Positions 1,473 through 63,075 of a stretch of DNA of 64,000 nt are shown here, one piece after another. Position 1 is the first letter of the stretch, and the number at the start of each line of letters is the position of its first letter. The DNA comes from Nitrosopumilus sp. (GTDB lineage Archaea > Thermoproteota > Nitrososphaeria > Nitrososphaerales > Nitrosopumilaceae). The position numbers and the translations under genes are program-made. The stretch spans positions 96,001 through 160,000 of the forward strand of contig CBDBCE010000004.1 in the NCBI GenBank assembly GCA_965203315.1, read 5' to 3'. The notes under the pieces were generated by a model. The model saw nothing but the letters and a program-made list of their open reading frames with translations. It had not been told where the DNA came from and did not search any database.

Positions 1473-3158
1473 CTATGACTCTACGTTTGGGAAGCAATTT
1501 GCCTTGTCTATTAGGATATTATATTCACCAACTAGTGGATTTATCTCATCTACGATATTATTGATCTTGTCTACTAGGGGGTTAGATTTGGCTACTAGTC
1601 CCCTATAGTCTACACTGGGGTCTCGTTCAATATCCTCTGGTGTTAATCCATACTTGGCCAACACGTCGATATATTCTTGGAACAACATGTTGTACTCGTC
1701 ATTGAGTAGTTCCAATCGTTGATCCAACCTATCGATCTTATCCTGATTCGCTTTTTGACCTATATAGTGATCATATTTGCTTGAAATTGGTGGTATCTCG
1801 TATCCCATATCATCAAATGATATTTGTGTGAACTCGTCAGATCCGTACATCAAATGTGATTCAGATGAGTGATGAGCAAGACCTAGAGCATGACCAATCT
1901 CGTGCATTATTGTATCGGACACACTGTTTGTATCAAGCTGAATATATGATCCTGTACAATCTCGATTGCCTAGCGAGATTAAAAGTTCACAGTAGGCATA
2001 TTCGCAGATTGCCAATCCAACGTGTTCATCTTGTACAAATCTATCCCACGATACTATGATATCTGCATCAGGATGTTTTATTTGAATAAAGGTTAACGTG
2101 GGATTTAGCGACTGCCAGATTGCAAATGCTTGATGTGTGGCAACAATTGGTATTGTTTTATTTGTTACAGGAATTGATGAATTGATATAGTATGTGATTG
2201 GACTGTATTCGGAATCTACCGGTACGACTGTTATGGTACTATTCGTTGCGCGTATGTTGAGAAAACACTCTGCCCGTTCTACCAAAATAGATCGCTTGCT
2301 GTCTAGAATATTCATCTGTACGTTTATCTCGTCGATCTTGTCTTGAATGGGATTTAGTCGATGTACCATACTAGAGGGATAATTGTAGATACTATCTTTG
2401 ATATCTTTAAGAGTCACTCCATACTCTGCTAGTATCTTGTTGTATTGTTGTTCTAAATCTTTACGTTTTTGTTGTAATTGCGTCCGCTGCTCATCCAATG
2501 CATTGATATCATCTAGTATGGGTTCTTGCTCTGTATAGTATGCAGAGTCGAGTGGCTTTGGTATTGTGTATAAAGTATTTAGTGTATCTTTGGTATTTGT
2601 GCCATACATTAGATGAGATTTGTCATCGGTGTTACTGATACCTAAAAGATGTCCGATATCCTGCATGATCTCTGTAGTAATACTATCCGAGCTTCGATGT
2701 ACATATCTTCCATTACAGTCAGTTGTACCTAACAATACTATTATCTTACATTTGCTATAATCACATTCGATGTTTGAATATTCTCGATCTGTAGACTTGA
2801 TCCCTGATACTATGATATCTGCATCATCTGATGCTAAATGAGTAAAGGTTAGCGATGGGTTTAGTTCTTGCCATGATACAAATGCTTTATGTACTGCATC
2901 TGTTATACTGCTTGATGTGGGTGATGGATCTATATAGTATGTGTAAGATCTAGATTGTGTGTTATCTGGACTCTGACCGTATATTGGAGTGATAAACTCA
3001 TCTGTGCTTAGTATGACTGTGAATATCAGCATAACAAATGATGTTGTCATAACTGCTCTATCTCTAAATTCATTCCGTACTATACATTTGCTCACAATCT
3101 GTTCTAAATGATTAGATGCGTAAAAACCATCCTGTCTTAATCTATTCATGTCCGTCAT
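1473..3158 (-). CDS. Secreted matrixin/M10-like zinc metalloprotease with duplicated module
   Basis: HEIGHALGLAH zinc motif plus HLMYG Met-turn; hydrophobic N-terminal segment (probable start ATG 3050); an upstream degenerate copy of the domain. Confidence 0.8.
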   Translation of the reverse strand: MTDMNRLRQDGFYASNHLEQIVSKCIVRNEFRDRAVMTTSFVMLIFTVILSTDEFITPIYGQSPDNTQSRSYTYYIDPSPTSSSITDAVHKAFVSWQELNPSLTFTHLASDDADIIVSGIKSTDREYSNIECDYSKCKIIVLLGTTDCNGRYVHRSSDSITTEIMQDIGHLLGISNTDDKSHLMYGTNTKDTLNTLYTIPKPLDSAYYTEQEPILDDINALDEQRTQLQQKRKDLEQQYNKILAEYGVTLKDIKDSIYNYPSSMVHRLNPIQDKIDEINVQMNILDSKRSILVERAECFLNIRATNSTITVVPVDSEYSPITYYINSSIPVTNKTIPIVATHQAFAIWQSLNPTLTFIQIKHPDADIIVSWDRFVQDEHVGLAICEYAYCELLISLGNRDCTGSYIQLDTNSVSDTIMHEIGHALGLAHHSSESHLMYGSDEFTQISFDDMGYEIPPISSKYDHYIGQKANQDKIDRLDQRLELLNDEYNMLFQEYIDVLAKYGLTPEDIERDPSVDYRGLVAKSNPLVDKINNIVDEINPLVGEYNILIDKANCFPNVES

Positions 3159-3227
3159 TGTATACTAGTCAGATTTAAAACAGTACTCATGTAAAGTCGC
3201 ATCGATCTTGAGTAGAATATCTATTCT

Positions 3228-4130
3228 CTATATCTTTTGTGTTGGAATCTTTCTCCATTTGGGAATCGCACTGTCCTCCCTCTCGAACTCGAGTGTGATC
3301 GACTCATCTCGTATATGTGGTGGTTCATCGAGACGCATATTGGCATAATCAACATATGATTGCTGAATATCTATTCCATAGAATCGACGTTTTAGATATC
3401 TGGCAACCTTTGTTGTTTGACCTGCGCCATTAAAAGGATCTAGCACTAGATCGCCTTCATTAGAGTACAGGCTCAGTAACCTATATGGAATCTCTTCTGG
3501 ATAGGGACACGGATGCTGTAAAAAACCTGGAGGTACAGGCGCTATATGCCAAACAGAATTTGCTATCTCTTTCCATGTGATATCTTGGTTTATGTTAGTA
3601 AATGCGTGTTTTATCTTTCGTAGTCTGTTGTCACCTTTTCTCATCACTAGAATCACTTCGTGCATTATATTTGCACGAAAATATGACGGGTATGGATATT
3701 TTACAAAACTACCTGCTCTGTTTGCACCTCCAGTAACTTTATGCCATATGATCTCTTCATGCAGAGACCAACCTCGCTCATACATTTTTGATACGAGAAG
3801 TGCAGGGAGTGGTTCAAGTGTCCCTTTGTTTATCTCGTTTCCAATAACTATGCAACAGTATCCTCCGTACTTTGTTGCCTTGTACACTTTATCAAATGTC
3901 TGGACCATGTCGTCCATATATTCCTGTACTGTGATCGCAAGTTTGCCTCTATAGTTCTTGTCTGGATCGTTACCATATTTGGTATGCATAGAATAGTCGA
4001 TAGCATTTCGATATGGTGGAGATGTAATTGTAATATCGATGGTCTCTGGTTCCAGCTCCGCAAGTATGGTGCTATTGTCACCACATATGATCTGATCAAC
4101 ATTCAACTTGCACAACAGACCAAATATCAT
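3228..4130 (-). CDS. Orphan beta-class DNA methyltransferase (N4-C/N6-A)
   Basis: TSPPY motif IV precedes DPFNGAG motif I; HPCPYPEE motif; no adjacent endonuclease. Confidence 0.9.
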   Translation of the reverse strand: MIFGLLCKLNVDQIICGDNSTILAELEPETIDITITSPPYRNAIDYSMHTKYGNDPDKNYRGKLAITVQEYMDDMVQTFDKVYKATKYGGYCCIVIGNEINKGTLEPLPALLVSKMYERGWSLHEEIIWHKVTGGANRAGSFVKYPYPSYFRANIMHEVILVMRKGDNRLRKIKHAFTNINQDITWKEIANSVWHIAPVPPGFLQHPCPYPEEIPYRLLSLYSNEGDLVLDPFNGAGQTTKVARYLKRRFYGIDIQQSYVDYANMRLDEPPHIRDESITLEFEREDSAIPKWRKIPTQKI

Positions 4131-4277
4131 TTACTTAAATTTTTATTCTTGTGTGTAGTGAGTAGTTAGGCTGTCACTAGCAACAAGTTACTGAAATACA
4201 GAATAATTGATCTTGGCACTCAAGCGTATGATCGACCTAGTCGCTTGTAAACCCTTTAATTATGCACAAAAATTACC

Positions 4278-4883
4278 TTGTTTATGTCAATGATGTATAT
4301 GCCTGGCGCAACAGCAGTAGGTGTAACATTCGATACCGGTGTAGTCTTTGCAAGTGAGAGAAGGATCGCCATGGGAACTTTTTTGACGAGCAAGTCTACC
4401 AAGAAGACCTTTCCAATAACTCCCAAGGTAGGAGCTACTTGTGCTGGTCTAGTCGCTGACATGCAGATCTTGACTCTCCAGATATCAGCTATGGCAAAGA
4501 TTCGAAAGATGGAGTTGAAGCGAGATGTTCCACCAAATACTATAGCAAAGATGATATCAAATATGCTCTATGAACGTAGATACTTTCCTATCCTAACTCA
4601 AGTGATCGTTGGCGGTCTGATCGATAAACCAACTCTGTATACTCTTGATCCAATAGGTTCACTTCTTCCTGAACCGTATGCAGCAGTAGGTACCGGTGCA
4701 GAGATAGCACTAGGTGTACTGGATCCAAAATTTGATAAAAATATGAAACGAGATCAGGCAATAGATCTCGTACGTGAATCGGTGAGAGTTGCAACTCTTC
4801 GCGATGCATCAAGTGGCGATGGTCTAGATATATTGGTCATTACTGATCAAGGAATCGAAGAGTTTAGTGAAGATCTATCCTAG
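4278..4883 (+). CDS. psmB: Proteasome beta subunit
   Basis: GATAVGV...ASERRI, TLDPIGSL, RDASSGDG motifs. Confidence 0.93.
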   Translation: MFMSMMYMPGATAVGVTFDTGVVFASERRIAMGTFLTSKSTKKTFPITPKVGATCAGLVADMQILTLQISAMAKIRKMELKRDVPPNTIAKMISNMLYERRYFPILTQVIVGGLIDKPTLYTLDPIGSLLPEPYAAVGTGAEIALGVLDPKFDKNMKRDQAIDLVRESVRVATLRDASSGDGLDILVITDQGIEEFSEDLS

Positions 4884-5354
4884 TCGTAAACTCTTTCCAA
4901 TCTCCCAAAATTTATCCGATATGTAATGCAAGTTTTTCAGTACCTCTCCCTTTACCATTGTGTCGAGTTCCACACTAGATACCAGTGTCTTTCCAACTGC
5001 TAAGAACTTGCCATGCTTTTCTTCTACTATGCAGACCAATCTATCTAGTTCAAATTCATCAAACTCTGTGATGCCAGGTCGCATCAAGTTTGCCCCTTTG
5101 CACATGAACTTGACTGCTCCCATGTCTATCGTGATTCTTGGAAATCTCTTTAGAGTCTCAACCTCTGTCAAAAATGGAATATAGGTTTGATCTATCTTTA
5201 GGATCTTGAGTTCGCTTGCAGTAATAATCTGCTCACTAGCTGATATGTGATAGACATTAAAGTTTTTGATCTTTGGAATATCGATCGCCCATTGCTCTGT
5301 GACGTCATTGATTATCTTGACAGTCTCTCGCTTTGATATTAGATTTGATTTCAA
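4875..5354 (-). CDS. PUA-domain RNA-binding protein
   Basis: IDMGAVKFMCKGANLMRPGI and NLHYISD motifs; start reassigned to TTG 5354, which overlaps the hom stop (TTGA). Confidence 0.85.
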   Translation of the reverse strand: MKSNLISKRETVKIINDVTEQWAIDIPKIKNFNVYHISASEQIITASELKILKIDQTYIPFLTEVETLKRFPRITIDMGAVKFMCKGANLMRPGITEFDEFELDRLVCIVEEKHGKFLAVGKTLVSSVELDTMVKGEVLKNLHYISDKFWEIGKSLRLG

Positions 5355-6358
5355 GTCTGTACTATCTCTTTTCTGATGTCTAAAAGATCTCGCAAGATGG
5401 AACTTGCAGTCTCTATACCTCCTGCACCTCGTCCGATGATGGTTTGTATTCCAGAATGCTCTGAAGTAAAAGAGATTGCATTGAGTGTACCGTTGACGCA
5501 TAATGGATCATCTTTTTGGATCTCCCTGGGTTGTACAGTCAATTCTTTGTTACAAGATGCAACAAGTTTTACCACACAATTATTCTTTGCGGCATTCTTG
5601 ATATCTGTGCTAGATATATTGCGTATTCCAGTACGACAAATATTTGGTAGAGTGACCTTCATGTCCATTACCCAGTTTGCTAGTATGACGAGTTTTGCAG
5701 CTGCATCTAAACCGTCCAGATCTAGAGATTCATCTGCCTCTACATAACCTCGTTCTTTTGCATCCAACAATGCAGCCTTGAAAGATAGTCCTGTAGCCAT
5801 ATTTGAGAGAATATAGTTTGTAGTTCCATTGAGTATCCCGGCAAATGATACTATACGTTCGCCTCTGAGACTATTCTTGGCATAGTCGAGTATCGGAGTT
5901 CCGCCACCGACTGTCCCACTAAACTTGAGGATCACTTGATTGTATGTTGCAAGCTCTAGTAGTGATGGAAACGCAAGAGCGAGTGGACCCTTGTTTACAG
6001 TGATAACATGCAGTCCACGCTTCATCGCAGTTATGATATGAGACATGCCTGGTTCTGCATCGTGATAGTTACTTGCAGTAGTCTCGATTAGGACATCTGC
6101 ATCTACATTCTTGATGATATCTGGGCCAGAAATCCTACTCTTGAAGTTATATCCTCCTACTGTTCCTGCTTGTCTCTTTACGTCGACAAGTTTATTCAAC
6201 TCCAATCCTAGCGAGTCAACTGCACTACCCTTGCTATCAAATACCGCAACAACTCTTGGTTTGAGTCCATACTTTGCATATAGATCATCCATTCTAGACT
6301 CAAATAGTCGTACTAGACTCTGTCCTACGACACCAAATCCGCAGAGTATTATTCTCAA
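5351..6358 (-). CDS. hom: Homoserine dehydrogenase
   Basis: GFGVVG Rossmann motif, NKGPLA, TVGGGTP, GILNGTTNYIL, GRGAGG. Confidence 0.95.
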   Translation of the reverse strand: MRIILCGFGVVGQSLVRLFESRMDDLYAKYGLKPRVVAVFDSKGSAVDSLGLELNKLVDVKRQAGTVGGYNFKSRISGPDIIKNVDADVLIETTASNYHDAEPGMSHIITAMKRGLHVITVNKGPLALAFPSLLELATYNQVILKFSGTVGGGTPILDYAKNSLRGERIVSFAGILNGTTNYILSNMATGLSFKAALLDAKERGYVEADESLDLDGLDAAAKLVILANWVMDMKVTLPNICRTGIRNISSTDIKNAAKNNCVVKLVASCNKELTVQPREIQKDDPLCVNGTLNAISFTSEHSGIQTIIGRGAGGIETASSILRDLLDIRKEIVQT

Positions 6359-6410
6359 TATTTGCCTCCTCTATTCATTGTATAGATCTGTATTATTATT
6401 TTTTGATAAA

Positions 6411-6812
6411 TCATCTCTTAGCATCATTCTCATGTATCAGTGAGATAGAGTTGATGCAATATCTCTGGTTTGTAGGTGCTGGACCATCATCAAATACATG
6501 GCCTAGATGGGATCCGCATCGTGCACAATTGACTTCTACTCGTACCATCCCATATGATGTATCAGATATGTATTGTATCTTTGTTTTGTCGATAGGTTTT
6601 GTAAAACTAGGCCATCCAGAACCGGAATCAAATTTGGATGTGGATTCAAAGAGATCTTGGCCACAGCACACACATCGATATGTGCCTGGTTCTTTACTCG
6701 TGTTATATTCGCCAGAAAAGGGAGGTTCTGTTCCATGATTTATGCATATTTCATATTGTATATCTGTTAACTCTTCTCGCCACTCTTGTGGTGTCTTTAC
6801 AATCTTTTCCAT
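6411..6812 (-). CDS. msrB: Peptide methionine-R-sulfoxide reductase
   Basis: GTEPPFSG, KFDSGSGWPSF, HLGHVFDDGP, RYCINS. Confidence 0.97.
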   Translation of the reverse strand: MEKIVKTPQEWREELTDIQYEICINHGTEPPFSGEYNTSKEPGTYRCVCCGQDLFESTSKFDSGSGWPSFTKPIDKTKIQYISDTSYGMVRVEVNCARCGSHLGHVFDDGPAPTNQRYCINSISLIHENDAKR

Positions 6813-28837: not shown

Positions 28838-29074
28838 CTACAATTGTGATCATAAATTATTGGTGGGGATTGACAGTTTTGCACAAGACTCAAAGTTATG
28901 CAATATATAAAATGGTCGTGTATCAATTATTATGAATTACTGTTGAATTGCATGATGTATGTTGCTTGAGATAGAATCATCACGATCCCAATCTCTTGCC
29001 AAGTTCAGACCCTAAGGTACACTAGACTAGTATTCCATCATGATTTTTTAAACAGAACTCTCTCTATTGTAATA

Positions 29075-47034: not shown

Positions 47035-47720
47035 TTATTTAAATTCAGAGTTTTCGTTTGCCCAGTTGGGATTCTTTCTAATTTTGGCACTGGCACGTTT
47101 ATTTTTAAATGCCTTCAGAGGTGTTTCGCCGTTATCAATATATAGTGAGAAATAAAGTCTGTCTTTGTTATAGTAATTGATGTATACTCTTATGCTCTTG
47201 GAATGTTTAATTTCTGATTCAAATGTTCCAAAGAATCTCTCCAATTTGCCATTAGTCTGAGGATGATTTGCTCTTGCAAGTATTTGTTTTATTTTTCGTT
47301 TGCTTAATTCTGCTTCAAATAATGTAAGTTTTTTACGCCCGTTCTTTGGTTTTTTAGCAGATGTAAATTGCGTTCCACGATCAGATAGTATCTGTGCCGG
47401 TACGCCAAACTTTTTGATAGCTTTTCTCAACACACTGACCACATTTGCTGACGTTGCATGTTTAAAGACCCCAAAACCTGTGATGCATCTAGAAGCATCG
47501 TCTAGGTAGCAAATCAGGTATAGAGTTCCCCCATCTTGGGTCATCTATTGCGTGCCAGTCTACATGCCACATGGCGTTAGAGTATTTCCTCTCAAAACGA
47601 ATCTAGCTCCGACGTTTTCGCTTTGTAGGTGATGGAGTGATTAGACCCTTTTCGTACATTATCTTTCGTACATTATCTTTCGTACATCTCTGTAACTGAT
47701 TTGTATGCGCAAACGTCGTA
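47035..47720 (-). pseudogene. IS481-type DDE transposase remnant
   Basis: RFERKYSNAMWHVDWH, LICYLDDASR, ILSDRGTQF, PQTNGKLERFF; frameshift near 47535, in-frame stop near 47605, 14-bp tandem duplication near 47651-47687. Confidence 0.85.
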
Positions 47721-47781
47721 ATTCTTTTGTAATACGAACTACACCAAAATGATTATTTTGTAGTTAATTCTAACCTTTCTC

Positions 47782-56587: not shown

Positions 56588-58342
56588 GTGATAATGGCTA
56601 GCGAGACAGATGGGGTCTCAAACATACATAATAGATTCTCTCTCACCTTGATAAACCCCGCATCACATTACTTTTCTCTAGTTGCATCACTAGGTATTGC
56701 GGCAGTAATAGCGATCACTACATACTTTGCATATATTCCACATGTCGACGAGTCTCAGATATGGTATAGGGTTCCTGCAATTGTCGGAGTACTTGCATTA
56801 GCTCAAATTTTGGATACTAGATATACCAAGAAAAAAGAATACTCCAAGTCTCTACATTCCTCGTTATTTGCAAACATGTTGTGGATCGTAACCATGCTAG
56901 TTGGTCTAGCAGCAAGTACAATCTTGGAAAAAGAGATCACATTGTTTTTTATAACTCTTGGAATGTTTCTCTTTGCAAGTTTTAGAATTGGTATCTATAC
57001 TGCAACGCTAGGAATCAATCTTACAAAGGCATGGGCTACATGCTTTATACAACCGTTAGCAATGTTTCTAGTACTAATTCCAACAGATCTTTGGGTACCT
57101 ATGTTGACAGATCCACTGTCTCTTGTATATGGTGTATCATTCATGGTAATTGCAAGTGTCTGGTCGGTAATGACAGACAGAGCTGGACGACCAGGAATGG
57201 ACAGCACGCACAAGACGATCCAAGCATATCTTGCATCACAGGGTAATGACTTTACAGATGCCGAGAAGATAATGGAGCAGCGCTCAAGCGAGACCCAAGT
57301 ATCTACCTCTCAGATACGATTTGAATCTTCAGACGGTAAGAACGAATTTCGTATGGTCTTGCCAGAGATACATCCTGGACCATATCATCCTGTTGGAGGG
57401 AGTAACATACCATACCTGATATACAAAAACTTGAACTCTTCTGCAATGGTGATGCATAGCATATCTGATCATGCATTAAATCTTCCATCACGAAATGAGG
57501 TCAAGAACTATCTCCAAAGTCTAGCATACAGCAAAGTACGAGAGACAGGTATGTATTGCACAGAGCCGGTAATGGTTCAGATAAACAAAGCACGAGTCAC
57601 TGGTCTGTTGTTTGGAAATAGTCCTCTCTTGTTTTTGTCATTATCGCCGCATGGAATGGAAGATATTCCAAATTACATGAAGATCAATATAGAGGAATAC
57701 GCAAAGACAAAAGACTATGCTAGAACAATGATCGTAGACTGTCACAATGCAATGGGACAAGAGATCTCGAATGAAGATGGAGAAGATATGTTCAAGGCAG
57801 CAAAGTCATGCTTGGATACACTAGGTACAAGAAAGAGTTTTGAGTTAGAGTTTGGATATGCAAACTCTGACAGCATGAATGTCTGGACAGAGGACTTGGG
57901 AATGGGAGGATTAGGCATTGTGTGTCTAAAGATCAATGGTAAGAGATACTTTCTAGGATGGGCCGATGCCAACAACATGGAGAACGGTATCCGTGAAAAG
58001 ATTGTGTCAAACTTTGCTAGTCGTGGTCTCAACCTACTAGAGATGTGCACGTCTGATACTCATTATGCTCCGGTAAAGGCTAGAAACAAGAATGGATATT
58101 ATCAACTAGGATTGATAACCAGCGCAGACAAGATCACTGAATGGCTATTAGATATTGCAAAGCGTGCAGAAAAGTCGACACATGCCGCAAAATTTGAGAT
58201 ACTGGAGAACAAGACAGATGTAAGAGTGATGGGACAAGGAATCTTTAAAGACTATTCCAAAGCTCTTGACAACTCTCTAAAAATCACGAAAGGATTCTTG
58301 ATTGGTGGAATAATCTTCTTTCTAACTAGTCTCTTTCTATGA
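56588..58342 (+). CDS. DUF2070 family membrane protein
   Basis: Multi-TM N-terminus; IHPGP, GGSN, VDCHN, DANN, TSDTH motifs. Confidence 0.85.
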   Translation: MIMASETDGVSNIHNRFSLTLINPASHYFSLVASLGIAAVIAITTYFAYIPHVDESQIWYRVPAIVGVLALAQILDTRYTKKKEYSKSLHSSLFANMLWIVTMLVGLAASTILEKEITLFFITLGMFLFASFRIGIYTATLGINLTKAWATCFIQPLAMFLVLIPTDLWVPMLTDPLSLVYGVSFMVIASVWSVMTDRAGRPGMDSTHKTIQAYLASQGNDFTDAEKIMEQRSSETQVSTSQIRFESSDGKNEFRMVLPEIHPGPYHPVGGSNIPYLIYKNLNSSAMVMHSISDHALNLPSRNEVKNYLQSLAYSKVRETGMYCTEPVMVQINKARVTGLLFGNSPLLFLSLSPHGMEDIPNYMKINIEEYAKTKDYARTMIVDCHNAMGQEISNEDGEDMFKAAKSCLDTLGTRKSFELEFGYANSDSMNVWTEDLGMGGLGIVCLKINGKRYFLGWADANNMENGIREKIVSNFASRGLNLLEMCTSDTHYAPVKARNKNGYYQLGLITSADKITEWLLDIAKRAEKSTHAAKFEILENKTDVRVMGQGIFKDYSKALDNSLKITKGFLIGGIIFFLTSLFL

Positions 58343-58973
58343 TGTGCATCATGTCTATGTTACCATAAAACTCATCGAGGAATGACTCGAATTGATGTAT
58401 AGGTACAATTGGAACCTTGTCGACAAAACTGACACAATCTTGGTATAGTGTGACTATGACTGGCACAGCTGATGGTTGGGTTGTCTTTGTGATGTATTGA
58501 CGTGCACGTTCGATCTGTTTTTTAATAATCTGTGTTGGTATGCGGCTGCGACTCCAGTGTTTACAATCGATCAAGATCGATATACCTAAACGAGTACCAA
58601 CTACATCGATCTCCATCTTGGGTTTGGTTAGAAACAGATTTTTAGATACAACAAAGTTATGTGACGCAAGGATCTCAGCTGTAAATCCCTCAAAGTCTCG
58701 CCAGTCAATTGCTTCGGATATGTCGCCTATGTCAAATCCAGAATTCAACATATCTAGCGCAATATCGATCTTTGCTCCTGCTGTAAATTGATATGCACCA
58801 TTTTCATATACAGCAAAACTGGCCGACACCAACGAATCAAGTATCTTTGTTGAGTCGTTCTCACTTATCCCTGTGGTGGTTATAAAATCTTGAACAGATA
58901 CACCTCCTACAGCTATACCTCGTAGACCCTCGATCATCTTTGGATGAAATCTAGTCATATCTGGACTCATCAA
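58326..58973 (-). CDS. PD-(D/E)XK restriction-endonuclease-like (Mrr-type) protein
   Basis: WRDFEGF, EIDVVG, IDCKHW. Confidence 0.75.
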   Translation of the reverse strand: MMSPDMTRFHPKMIEGLRGIAVGGVSVQDFITTTGISENDSTKILDSLVSASFAVYENGAYQFTAGAKIDIALDMLNSGFDIGDISEAIDWRDFEGFTAEILASHNFVVSKNLFLTKPKMEIDVVGTRLGISILIDCKHWSRSRIPTQIIKKQIERARQYITKTTQPSAVPVIVTLYQDCVSFVDKVPIVPIHQFESFLDEFYGNIDMMHIIERD

Positions 58974-59246
58974 TCTATAGATAAAAACGATTTATTCTGC
59001 GTATTGTTCTCTTCTAGTAACACTACTGTGATATCATTTTTTTAAATTGCTGATGTATGTATTGGTGCATATAATCAGCACGAGTACAAACACCTTGCAC
59101 TTTGAATATTTATCTTGAATATTTACGCAAACTTCAACCATGTTGTACTATTTAAAACATAATGGAAAGATTATCTCTTTGTATCTAAATTGTATGTGAT
59201 AGTGACTCTACAAAATTGATTTTGTTTTCAAGTTATATATAGAATA

Positions 59247-59831
59247 TTGAAATACATGAATGTGCCCGAACGCGAATTCTCTAATTCCTTATGGCATGTG
59301 GGGTGGAAACGCATCGATGATGGTAGATGGTTAATCTGCTATATGGACAATGCTTCTAGATTTGTAACAGGTTATGATACCTTTGAACACACTACAGTAG
59401 AGAATACACTACTGGTGCTAGACAAGGCCATCAAAGATCACGGACGACCTGCGTCAATACTGACTAGTCATAAAAAACAGTTCTATGCAAGCGAGTCTGA
59501 AGCCGAGAAAAATGTCGCATCCCAATTTGAGATGAGATTGGTAGAGCTGGGCATCAAACAAATCTTCGCGCGAGCAAATCAATCGTATACTAATAACAGA
59601 CTAGCTAGACTATTCAGTGAAGTACAGCGCAAGCTACCAGCGTTTGAGGCAATTATGCAAAGAGTGAGTGATCCTGTCGATCTATTCATGAAATGGTACA
59701 ACTATGACCGACCACACATGTCTCTTGGAAAAGGTGGGTACGAGACGCCACATGAAGCATTTAATCGAAAAATGCCAAAAGAAGGAACAGTTATTGACGA
59801 GTCGTCAGGAGATGAACACCATGTCAAATGA
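59247..59831 (+). CDS. IS481-type integrase-core protein with substituted catalytic residues
   Basis: Collinear with the 47-kb transposase (SNSLWH, LICYMDNASR, YNYDRPHMSL, TPHEAF) but the D, D and E positions read G, S and A. Confidence 0.75.
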   Translation: MKYMNVPEREFSNSLWHVGWKRIDDGRWLICYMDNASRFVTGYDTFEHTTVENTLLVLDKAIKDHGRPASILTSHKKQFYASESEAEKNVASQFEMRLVELGIKQIFARANQSYTNNRLARLFSEVQRKLPAFEAIMQRVSDPVDLFMKWYNYDRPHMSLGKGGYETPHEAFNRKMPKEGTVIDESSGDEHHVK

Positions 59832-59957
59832 AGGGGTGAACGACTTTTCATATCCCACAATTTACTTTTGGCTTTCCATGGGATCAAATATCAAAGAACT
59901 TGAACTTGAAATCAATACCTTAATTATTTGAAATTTAAGTGTATTTGGATGTATTAT

Positions 59958-60072
59958 GAATCTTTTCGATTTACGTGGGATGGCATTTTACAAGGCTGTT
60001 TTTACTAATTTTTTCCTATACCTCATAGTGCTGTTTCTATACCATTCTATCCCACATAAATCGAAAAGATCC
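59958..60072. mobile_element. MITE family A, copy 6
   Basis: GAATCTTTTCGATTTACGTGGGATGG ... CTATCCCACATAAATCGAAAAGATCC. Confidence 0.86.
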
Positions 60073-60385
60073 CAGATAAGAACAAGAAGAAAGGAACAAT
60101 CAAGTTTGAGATGAGATTGGCAAAAGTAGGGATACAACACATTCTTGGACAAGTAAATCGTCCGGAGACCAATGGTAAAGTGGAACAACTATTTGGAGAG
60201 GTAGATCTCGAATTTCCAGTATTTGCAGGATACATGCAACGAACAAGTGATCCAGTAGATATGTTCATGAAATAGTACAACTATGAACGCCTCCACATGT
60301 CTCTCAATATCGACATCAGATACACCATACAAAGCGTTTATCAACAAACAACCTCCAAAATGAGTAGAAATCGATGACCAGTAAG
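60073..60385 (+). pseudogene. 3' remnant of an IS481-type transposase
   Basis: FEMRLAKVGIQHILGQVNRPETNGKVEQLFGEV...SDPVDMFMK*YNYERLHMSL; internal stop, 5' end cut at MITE A. Confidence 0.8.
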
Positions 60386-60576
60386 AAAAATACCACATAA
60401 CCCGGGGCAACCACTTTCCGGATCCTACAATCAAATGACGTGATGAACAACTCTTTATATCACTCAGTGTGAAATGATGAGGTCTATTCATATTCCACAA
60501 ATGTGGGGGTGAATAACAAACCATATCTAATATTCGATCAGCCAATTTTTATTACAAGTGATATCTCAAGGCATTT

Positions 60577-63075
60577 GTGTATACTGTATCTATGCTGAAG
60601 ATAGTGTTATTGTGCACAATATCATTATGCGTAATATCGTTGGGAATAGAATTCAAGCTAGTACAGGCTAGTGCATTTGTAGAGTCCATAAAGTTTATTC
60701 AATATCTTGATGAGAACACCGCATTAGAAGAGGTTCGTAGTGGTAATCTAGACATGTATTACTTTAGAATGCCATCAGACAGACTAGAAGATATTTCGTC
60801 AAGAGAGAATCTCAAGATATTCGAGTCTACCGGTGGATCATATAGCATTCTTGCAAATCCTGCAGAGTCTGAAGAGTTTAATCCTTTCTCTATACGCGAG
60901 ATAAGATTTGCTCTAAACTATCTAGTTGATAGACAGTTGATCGTAAATGAGTTGATGGGAGGATATGGCGCGCCTATTGTATCGTATTATGGCCCAACTG
61001 ATCCTGAATTTCTTACTGCGATCGAGACGTTAGAGAGCTTTAATTTTAGATACAATCCAGCATTGGCCAATGAGATCATCTCAGATAATCTAAAGAATGT
61101 TGGAGCAGTGCAACACGATGGTATATGGCATATGGACTCCAAACCCATCAATATTGTGATATTCATTCGAAGTGACGATCCAGTGAGAAAGTCGATAGGA
61201 GAGTTACTGGCAACTGAACTTGAAAAGGTTGGTTTTATAGTAACAAAGAGTTTCGGCGATCTAAACAAAGCATTTGTTGTTGTATATGGATCAAATCCTG
61301 CCGATCTATCGTGGCATCTCTACACTGAAGGATGGAGCAGATCGGCGTTTGTTCGATATGATGCAATAGGTTTGAGTCAGATGTATGCTCCATGGTTCTC
61401 TAACATGCCTGGCTTTAACGATCCATCTTACTGGAACTATGAGAATGAACGAATCGATAACGTTACACAAAAGATCTATGGTGGCGAATTTGAGTCTGAT
61501 ATAGAACGAGCTGATCTGATCAACATCGCAATAGGTATAGGAATAGACGAGTCGGTTCGAGTATTTCTCGCAAGTAAGATAGATCAGTATGTTGTAAACA
61601 GTGATATCAGCGGTGTGATCAACGACTTTGGATCTGGAATAACGAGCAGATTCACTCCAATCAACGCACGCGGAACAGGTGAGACACTTGCCATTGGCGT
61701 AAAACAGATCTATCAAGGAGCATGGAATCCTATTATGGGACTAACAGATCTCTATAGTCGATATATCTGGGAAATTGTATCAGACCCTGCAACATTCAAG
61801 CATCCCTATTCTGGCAAGACTATTCCAATACGAGCCGAATGGAATGTTGAAACAGATGGTCTAAACAGTACAATAAACGTTCCCTCTGACGCAATGCGTT
61901 GGAATCCGGTCGAGGGTGTGTGGGAAAGAGTAGGTGAAAATGTTACATCGATCAGCAAAGTCACATACAACTATGAGTTTGGAGAATGGCATAATGGCAT
62001 AATGATGGATATGAGCGACATTTGGTATTCATTATACTTTACATCAGAATGGGGAGCTCAAACAGATGACGATGACAAGACATTTGATACAGAGTTTACT
62101 CCAAGGGCTACTCAAAGTATCGAGACGATAATCGGCGCTAGACAGATAGATGCGAATACACTAGAAGTCTATGTAGATTATTGGCACTTTGATGAAGGTG
62201 AGATTGCAGAATGGGCAGTGATCTGGAGTTCTACTCCATGGGAGATAACATATGCAATGGAGCAAGCTGTCTTGGATAGCAAAGCCTCATTTTCGAGATC
62301 GGGAGCAACAAGTAAGAATATCAGTTGGTTGTCGCTCCTTATTCCCAATGACGCCAACATGATCAAAAGTTATCTGGATGACTTTATTGTACAAGATTTT
62401 GTACCATATGGATTAGATGGTATAGTCGAATCTACCAACCATAAATCTAGATATGAATCATCAACAAGATGGATCGAAGAGAACAATCATGCAGTAATCA
62501 GCAATGGACCATTTTACATAGAGTCGTACTCTCCAGAGTCTAGAACGATATCTGCTCGATCATTCGAAGGTGTATATCCATTTCAAGTAGGCAAATGGAC
62601 CAAGTTTGAGTCTACTACATTTCCATCAATATTGCGAGTAGAGATAGAGGAGCCTATACTCCAAGAGGTGGGCTCTACGATAAAAGTTGAGACGAGAGCT
62701 GCAGACTCGATCCTATACTTTCTTACAGATAGTAAAGGAGATGTGATCTATTCGGATACAGTAAGCGCAGATGATGTGATCGAGATCGTACTCTCGCCAC
62801 AAAGACTGTCGATGCTGGACAGAGATGCCAACAGCATCAAGATCTTTGCACTATCTGATACAGTATTCAAACCAGATATGTATGAAAAGAGTTTCATCGT
62901 TCTAGAAGAACGACCCGAGTTTGATATAGAGTACAATGAATACAATACTGGTAGTGATCAAGAGTATTGGCCAATCATTATTCTAGTAGTAATTATACTT
63001 GGTACTGTGATATACGTCAAGAGACATAACATGCAAAGATCGAGATCAGTATCCGCGAGCAAAGATCGGATGTGA
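60577..63075 (+). CDS. Peptide/nickel ABC transporter substrate-binding protein (family 5)
   Basis: Signal peptide, NPFSIREIRFALNYLVDR, SNGPFYI, C-terminal TM anchor. Confidence 0.85.
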   Translation: MYTVSMLKIVLLCTISLCVISLGIEFKLVQASAFVESIKFIQYLDENTALEEVRSGNLDMYYFRMPSDRLEDISSRENLKIFESTGGSYSILANPAESEEFNPFSIREIRFALNYLVDRQLIVNELMGGYGAPIVSYYGPTDPEFLTAIETLESFNFRYNPALANEIISDNLKNVGAVQHDGIWHMDSKPINIVIFIRSDDPVRKSIGELLATELEKVGFIVTKSFGDLNKAFVVVYGSNPADLSWHLYTEGWSRSAFVRYDAIGLSQMYAPWFSNMPGFNDPSYWNYENERIDNVTQKIYGGEFESDIERADLINIAIGIGIDESVRVFLASKIDQYVVNSDISGVINDFGSGITSRFTPINARGTGETLAIGVKQIYQGAWNPIMGLTDLYSRYIWEIVSDPATFKHPYSGKTIPIRAEWNVETDGLNSTINVPSDAMRWNPVEGVWERVGENVTSISKVTYNYEFGEWHNGIMMDMSDIWYSLYFTSEWGAQTDDDDKTFDTEFTPRATQSIETIIGARQIDANTLEVYVDYWHFDEGEIAEWAVIWSSTPWEITYAMEQAVLDSKASFSRSGATSKNISWLSLLIPNDANMIKSYLDDFIVQDFVPYGLDGIVESTNHKSRYESSTRWIEENNHAVISNGPFYIESYSPESRTISARSFEGVYPFQVGKWTKFESTTFPSILRVEIEEPILQEVGSTIKVETRAADSILYFLTDSKGDVIYSDTVSADDVIEIVLSPQRLSMLDRDANSIKIFALSDTVFKPDMYEKSFIVLEERPEFDIEYNEYNTGSDQEYWPIIILVVIILGTVIYVKRHNMQRSRSVSASKDRM

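Follow-up and report, generated by a model that had tools for sequence, protein, structure and literature searches.

IS481-family transposases (NF033577; rve and rve_3 domains) are the described system closest to the open reading frame (ORF) considered here: they are the top-scoring family for this frame and for its intact relatives, which carry the same core motifs, WHxD, DRGxQF and HPQTNGKxER. The bacterial IS4-family element Tn5 encodes the inhibitor Inh, an N-terminally shortened transposase without the DNA-binding part that acts in trans via inactive assemblies. A second start within the intact transposase gene gives rise to Inh, whose catalytic residues are still present. The P-element KP repressors and dominant-negative mariner copies are defective, non-catalytic forms that damp their own family and arise repeatedly. 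To our knowledge, and after a full-text literature search, no trans-acting inhibitor built from the DDE catalytic half has been described for IS481-like elements or for archaea. Damping by defective copies can be compared with transposase autoregulation (eLife 2013, PMC3687335). The PiggyMac partners are reported to be catalytically inactive domesticated eukaryotic transposases that kept the fold and lost the catalytic residues (PMC6143343).

The window analysed here is a stretch of 64,000 nucleotides (G000:C5:96001-160000) from an archaeal genome of 2.47 Mb with 39% G+C. Its integrase-like frame and the element ahead of it are as follows.

59256 (ATG) or 59247 (TTG) to 59831, plus strand: ORF of 191 or 194 aa, open, without stop or frameshift
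59256 to 59831, plus strand: domains of the ORF, an integrase catalytic core and a small C-terminal domain, with the N-terminal helix-turn-helix (HTH) absent
59233 to 59240, plus strand: TTATATAT, a putative TATA-like octamer 16-23 nt ahead of ATG 59256

A preliminary description had reported a 194-codon frame free of stops and frameshifts and lacking the HTH region, and both points hold. The frame has 194 codons from TTG 59247 and 191 from the ATG, within a stop-to-stop frame of 203 aa, and similarity to other copies begins at 59268 in both blastn and blastx, so that the HTH half is missing. Because blastx upstream of 59268 found no resemblance to the HTH half of a transposase, the start codon lies in non-IS sequence, four codons ahead of the truncation point. 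The TATA-like element of the same description is also present. Its octamer is rare in the window (2 copies versus 6.1 expected from shuffles), and TATA-like octamers are strongly depleted across the window. For example, TTTATATA occurs once in the 64 kb, at 28903-28911 on the minus strand, where 10 copies are expected from shuffles; this copy is intergenic, and no ORF of at least 60 aa starts close downstream of it on the same strand.

Profile searches and structure prediction both recover an RNase-H-like integrase core. The frame matches Pfam rve with an E value of 2.6e-7, although its 31.3 bits fall short of the 32.6 required, and rve_3 with 24.1 (cut-off 26.5). The top NCBIfam family is IS481 (NF033577), with 74.7 bits over profile positions 124-284 of 284; the curated cut-off is 224 bits, and the scores of full-length archaeal copies (183 and 181 bits) also fall under it. 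The AlphaFold model, computed from an 18-row alignment, reaches a mean pLDDT of 80.4, and its predicted fold is still that of an integrase core with a C-terminal domain. Confidence is low at residues 71-90 and 109-112, which span the region of the second catalytic Asp and the altered motif ahead of the former Glu. The top Foldseek matches of the model are retroviral two-domain integrases (E about 4e-10, TMq 0.62-0.71, 13-20% identity). A sequence-profile search of the PDB gave no solved relative at E<=0.001, and Rfam gave no match at E<=0.1 in 58300-60700. Public DNA contigs from three runs in two studies, spanning 58300-59708, 58300-59583 and 58300-59496, show 0 differences to the window across the 5' part of the ORF, and a search for RNA runs containing 58300-60700 listed none. 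All listed contig differences come from other repeat copies, and the contigs of those copies part ways at 59859/59860.

The catalytic positions were placed by alignment with intact relatives of 317-371 aa from other genomes of the genus, which read WHTDYK, TDRGSQFYA and HPQTNGKLERLHG at the three motifs.

59301 to 59303, plus strand: codon 19, GGG (Gly), at catalytic Asp 1; GAC in relatives
59466 to 59468, plus strand: codon 74, AGT (Ser), at catalytic Asp 2; GAY in relatives
59604 to 59606, plus strand: codon 120, GCT (Ala), at the catalytic Glu; GAR in relatives

The frame thus has G19, S74 and A120 in place of the D, D, E triad, which bears out the earlier claim that all three catalytic acids are replaced in an open frame; an alignment with acidic residues at these positions, named in advance as the outcome that would count against it, was not obtained with the intact relatives. 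S74 lies inside the patch SHKK, where relatives have DRG[SA], and A120 inside QSYTNNRLARLFS, where relatives have HPQTNGK[LI]ER. The codons GGG, AGT and GCT are each at least two base changes away from the D, D and E codons of the relatives. A compensated double frameshift as the source of the altered motif was ruled out by eye, since identities are interspersed with the changes. The substitutions had been recognized in the preliminary description by comparison with another copy in the window.

47035 to 47760, minus strand: family-B IS481-like copy with D, D and E retained, its frame broken by an in-frame stop and a frameshift; a 13-nt tandem duplication is also present

The motifs quoted from this copy (WHVDWH, ILSDRGTQF and TNGKLERFF) are as described, yet the copy itself is broken by the stop and the frameshift and belongs to family B. 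It matches the ORF in BLASTP with 40% identity over 149 aa (E 2e-31). Family B has 5 intact copies of 309-310 aa, 43% identical, elsewhere in the same genome.

According to blastn against its own genome, the 1.6-kb gap between host genes in which the ORF lies contains a first relic, a spacer, a MITE-like repeat and a second relic.

58326 to 58973, minus strand: flanking conserved gene, 215 aa, with a weak Mrr_cat match
59268 to 59859, plus strand: relic 1, IS481-like 'family A', 5'-truncated, from blastn against the own genome
59715 to 59859, plus strand: 3' patch closing relic 1 (145 nt), with a single mismatch to G000:C1:1293980-1294114 (99% identity)
59956 to 60072, strand unassigned: MITE-like repeat, about 117 bp long, bounded by inverted repeats of about 26 nt, with more than 100 blastn hits in the own genome
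60073 to 60499, plus strand: relic 2, 3' portion of a different family-A subtype, 81% nucleotide identity to G000:C1:1334557-1334936
60577 to 63075, plus strand: flanking conserved gene, 832 aa, solute-binding protein (SBP_bac_5)

Relic 1 consists of the ORF plus 28 nt up to the right IS end at 59859, where the 15-mer 59845-59859 recurs at the ends of other copies. Neither blastn nor blastx found a left IS end, and relic 1 has a right end only rather than two inverted ends. Relic 2, whose end motif lies at 60485-60499, retains its Glu (NGKVE) and has a TAG at 60273-60275, just as the preliminary description of a remnant at 60073 had it. The ends of the MITE-like repeat hold the TGTGGGAT core, which also terminates the family-A IS. 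The 3' patch of relic 1 marks a recent recombination or gene conversion event, and the rest of the ORF is only about 47-82% identical per 60-nt window to the same copy (1293). Given the 99% identity of the patch, about a fifth of the open frame is young. Mosaicism is strong among the IS relics of this genome; copies 806914 and 1334611 are 95% identical in codons 128-156 and 60-69% identical further 5'.

The order of the host genes (a 584-aa gene, the 215-aa gene and the 832-aa gene) is kept in 29/29 of the relatives' loci fetched. Because none of these 29 loci has an rve gene between the 215-aa and 832-aa genes, the relics are a lineage-specific insertion between two host genes. The two genes lie close together in 26 of the 29 loci and are separated by 680-1000 nt in the other three. 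Two of the wide gaps were inspected (L033:555-1497 and L035:2137-3146); they hold two small unrelated ORFs, one of 74 aa and membrane-like and one of 62 aa, both conserved and absent from the window. Orthologues of the ORF with the same substitutions at a syntenic site, which the preliminary description proposed to seek, were found neither there (0/29 loci) nor in protein searches. In the flanking protein, even the nearest genomes share only about 60% identity, so young orthologues would not be visible in any case.

The ORF protein forms a singleton cluster. The nearest of its 127 hits is P0002 (211 aa, 67% identity), and the top match among longer proteins has 62%; names attached to related hits include Nitrosopumilaceae and Thaumarchaeota archaeon. 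P0002 is the sister of the ORF in the tree (SH-aLRT 98) and shares with it a Gly at the first Asp position and a rare 'KKQ' that replaces 'G[SA]Q'. These common features suggest that catalysis was probably lost before the ORF and P0002 split. Both frames are open at 33% protein divergence, and they differ at 18 of 73 conserved and 38 of 103 variable positions. About 10 of the 18 differences at conserved positions lie, by eye, around the catalytic residues. The P0002 locus was not found in 151 genomes of the genus; a wider contig search gave one locus, at 60%.

The own genome holds 40 matches to the ORF and about ten family-A relics. The family-A copies are 50-73% identical to the ORF, all in open frames of at most 218 aa, and none is an intact transposase (218 aa is the longest open frame over a family-A match). 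Open cores among these relics are found in the ORF, in copy 806 and in the 1293/1295 duplicate. Copy 806 is a further core without the full triad.

G000:C1:806917-807570 (L083:997-1650), minus strand: second dead core (G-D-K) in a 218-aa open frame

This second core has TTG starts only, and its N-terminal half is scrambled and includes an inverted piece. Its branch has an omega of 0.17, below 1 at p=0.0007.

Selection on the ORF was estimated with a GY94 branch model on 149 older codons from 11 sequences. Active copies evolve with an omega of 0.075 and the ORF branch with 0.37, a value that is above the background (p=0.0008) and not different from 1 (p=0.20). Pseudogene 1334 (0.34) and copy 1293 (0.39) are like the ORF branch. 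Thus, the dN/dS check proposed in the preliminary description does not set the frame apart from neighbouring pseudogenes. If the branch is read as active and then neutral, its neutral part amounts to about 0.14 substitutions per site. In simulations, the probability that the 149 old codons contain no stop is 0.04 at 0.137 and 0.14 at 0.08 neutral substitutions per site; since the genome has about ten family-A relics, these open-frame odds (4-14%) are not compelling.

The changes in the ORF are unevenly distributed. Conserved positions were defined as those invariant in seven active relatives, and the active-site windows as codons 18-20, 73-77 and 112-124. The ORF has changed at 10/14 conserved active-site positions versus 7/61 elsewhere (Fisher p=1.5e-5, a value weakened by the windows having been set after the alignment was viewed). 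Two control relics from the ORF's own clade and genome have no such skew, with 3/14 in the active site versus 15/60 elsewhere for 1334 and 2/14 versus 10/61 for 1293 (p=1 for each), and this contrast stands despite the post hoc windows. The second dead core, 806, has 6/14 versus 11/61. In total, the ORF has changed at 17/75 conserved positions and pseudogene 1334 at 18/74. The active site of the ORF is changed about as far as the synonymous distance of its branch allows, and outside the active site the ORF is better kept than the pseudogenes. Neutral decay should strike conserved positions evenly, so the 'active, then neutral' model misfits the skew of the ORF.

Replacement of the first Asp by Gly recurs in the wider family. 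In a tree of 193 family proteins built without the motif columns, this change occurred about 8 times independently (in at least 8 lineages), and a change to Asn occurred once. Loss of the Glu accompanies the change to Gly in about 6/7 independent pairs and never the reverse (p about 0.03). Across the 8 lineages, the other two catalytic positions changed in 10/16 cases versus 2.1 expected (P=3.6e-6). A DNA motif scan blind to the ORF (N-S-x-W-H-x-G-[WY]-K) found two real copies among 151 genomes of the genus, both in the own genome, plus one chance hit, and 11 loci in 10 genomes in a 401-genome family sample. Such G-type loci occur once in each of 9 genomes and twice in the own genome. Two motif hits were dropped as chance: G004, whose frame is not rve, and G202/L109, a 35-aa frame without rve or protein match. 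Among the 10 real G-type loci, nine have a core that is open to its natural end, and the only one that keeps the Glu also carries a stop. The loci fall on at least three structural backbones. That the G-type forms are one clade was rejected by the trees and by the different insertion backbones. Syntenic orthology was rejected for the one pair inspected, L115 and L116, whose neighbours differ. Without synteny, inheritance of any G-type locus as a host gene is at most a possibility.

The control set comprised 26 Asp-type motif loci from six of these genomes, classified by eye. After removal of 2 that lay at contig ends, 11 appeared whole; the other 13 were broken or truncated, 2 of them with a frame open across the core. 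The Glu is kept in 9/10 broken Asp-type loci versus 1/10 Gly-type loci (p=0.001). The core is open in 9/10 G-type loci versus 1/6 old Asp-type relics of the own genome (p=0.008), and versus 4/20 broken D-type loci (p=0.0004), a comparison that is partly circular because whole D-type loci had been set aside as active. The best-resolved G-type case, G216_GAA, adjoins its active sister and is plain decay: its omega is 0.95, its changes fall on 27/85 conserved versus 31/82 variable positions (p=0.42), and its frame stays open in a genome of 70% G+C, where stops are rare. This omega and the even spread indicate that G-type forms can be plain decay. Two other G-type copies have an omega of about 0.5. 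The pooled end-branch dN/dS of the G-type copies is 0.20 (versus 1: 2dlnL 141), a value not used as evidence because the branches include active-element time and base composition varies widely.

The replacements that recur on different backbones are the first Asp to Gly and the Glu to K, A, G or R, often with S to P ('PQFYA') and H to Y ('KLKRLYG'). They are seen in the dead-core proteins P0002, P0023, P0032, P0036, P0039, P0094, P0097, P0098, P0152, P0154, P0191 and P0208 and at the dead-core loci L106-L108 and L110-L114. E/K and H/Y are polymorphic within 90% clusters of dead cores, and recombination between copies together with mutation bias could spread or repeat the G-type residues. The G-type core of G284 adjoins an ORF for a 1433-aa helicase/methylase-like protein (L105, G284:C2:781000-797000, at 2509-6810 on the minus strand). 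The stretch upstream of that core is repeat-rich, and the neighbourhood as a whole may be a mobile or defence island.

Taken together, a dead branch kept for some time is the most that the data carry. The reading that we prefer, and to which we give roughly even weight, is that the ORF belongs to a branch that lost catalysis early and was then long kept, probably as a trans-acting inhibitor. The ORF would be a stranded, 5'-truncated copy of an archaeal IS481-like branch in which all three catalytic residues were lost early and the rest of the integrase core was then under selection for most of its later history. Its likeliest role during that time would be that of a core-only 'poison' subunit, which folds and joins transposase assemblies and cannot cut. 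Such a subunit would damp transposition of its own IS family and of the dependent MITEs, in the manner of the Tn5 inhibitor protein. The active cognate transposase on which a trans-dominant inhibitor would act is missing from the own genome. Thus, the role of IS481 inhibitor put forward in the preliminary description meets no intact transposase of the ORF's own IS family there to inhibit, and by now the copy may have fallen idle and begun to decay. A present-day function of the ORF is possible but doubtful.

A serious competitor, which we rate as somewhat improbable yet far from negligible, is an ordinary decaying IS fragment, killed by 5' truncation and drifting ever since, whose frame stayed open by luck with the help of the 3' recombination patch and whose loss of D, D and E belongs to that drift. 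Much of the locus fits this account. The ORF arrived by an insertion confined to its lineage, sits in a graveyard that also contains a MITE and a second relic, and is without an orthologue. Its dN/dS (0.37) is statistically compatible with 1 and matches the values of clear pseudogenes, conserved positions have changed in it to the same overall extent as in pseudogene 1334 (17/75 and 18/74), and the final 145 nt of relic 1 share 99% identity with another copy. Among about ten family-A relics, each open with a probability of 0.04-0.14, chance has several tries, and the ORF, 806 and the 1293/1295 duplicate do have open cores; G216_GAA is a G-type core that decays neutrally. The missing HTH and the scores under the Pfam cut-offs also speak against the preferred reading. 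However, drift should be as even as in 1334 and 1293, and the ORF shows 10/14 versus 7/61. Outside the active site, its 7/61 contrasts with 15/60 in 1334, 11/61 in 806 and 10/61 in 1293, and P0002 is also dead, with both frames open at 33% protein divergence. The skew, P0002 and the recurrence of G-type cores are likewise what stands of the earlier proposal of selection for a new role, namely an apparently targeted loss of catalysis; the part that made the ORF a domesticated host gene is not supported. A third account, in which the host recruited the ORF for a new cellular task, for example nucleic-acid binding, and expresses it at present from the TATA-like element, would agree with the open frame and its ATG, with the scarcity of TTATATAT in the window (2 versus 6.1 expected) and with a fold that the model predicts to be kept. 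We nevertheless consider it very unlikely, because no orthologue exists at the syntenic site or elsewhere in the searches, the G-type loci lie at different places in different genomes, and, at the usual archaeal spacing, a TATA element at TTATATAT would start the RNA at ATG 59256 or just past it.

Gene conversion could also have built the pattern, if short tracts from dead copies had pasted diverged active-site segments into an ordinary relic. Mosaicism is rife among the copies of this genome, both at the 3' end of the ORF and between 806 and 1334; G, K/A, Y and P recur on different backbones, and E/K and H/Y vary within 90% clusters. Yet no donor is seen, since no copy in the genome matches the 5' 450 nt of the ORF at more than about 68% identity; a tract of its own would be required for each of three separate motifs, and within the motifs identities are interspersed with changes. 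Such a recombination artefact is therefore hardly probable. The preferred reading of an early-dead, long-kept branch has a broader form, that genomes like those of ammonia-oxidising archaea repeatedly evolve core-only, dead 'poison' versions of IS481-like transposases, which silence the IS and its MITEs and can drive the family extinct. These cores would be marked by D to G and by E to K or A, often also by S to P and H to Y, and usually occur once per genome. The own genome would be one case, with a family A that has two G-type cores, no intact transposase and more than 100 stranded MITE copies. This whole generalization is unlikely, though worth stating. If the inhibitor reading is true, genomes or elements would have a simple and recurrent way to tame an IS family, the silencing of an IS family and its MITEs would be explained, and the G-type forms would be a ready set of natural dead-but-folded variants for studies of transposase assembly. 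If the inhibitor reading is false, ORF 59256-59831 is an ordinary IS relic.

What sets the ORF apart from IS481-family transposases is the absence of the HTH half, of the left end and of every catalytic residue, and even its intact archaeal relatives score under the 224-bit cut-off of that family. The KP and mariner repressors are eukaryotic, and KP keeps the DNA-binding N-terminus, whereas the ORF keeps the catalytic core. The PiggyMac partners are conserved host genes with orthologues and known roles, unlike the ORF, which is without an orthologue. With the retroviral integrase core and C-terminal domain (RSV two-domain integrase, 1C0M), the predicted model shares a relation of fold only. 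The ORF is without an HTH part and has kept the core and C-terminal domain, and it is by analogy with Inh that its proposed mechanism of inhibition may be understood.
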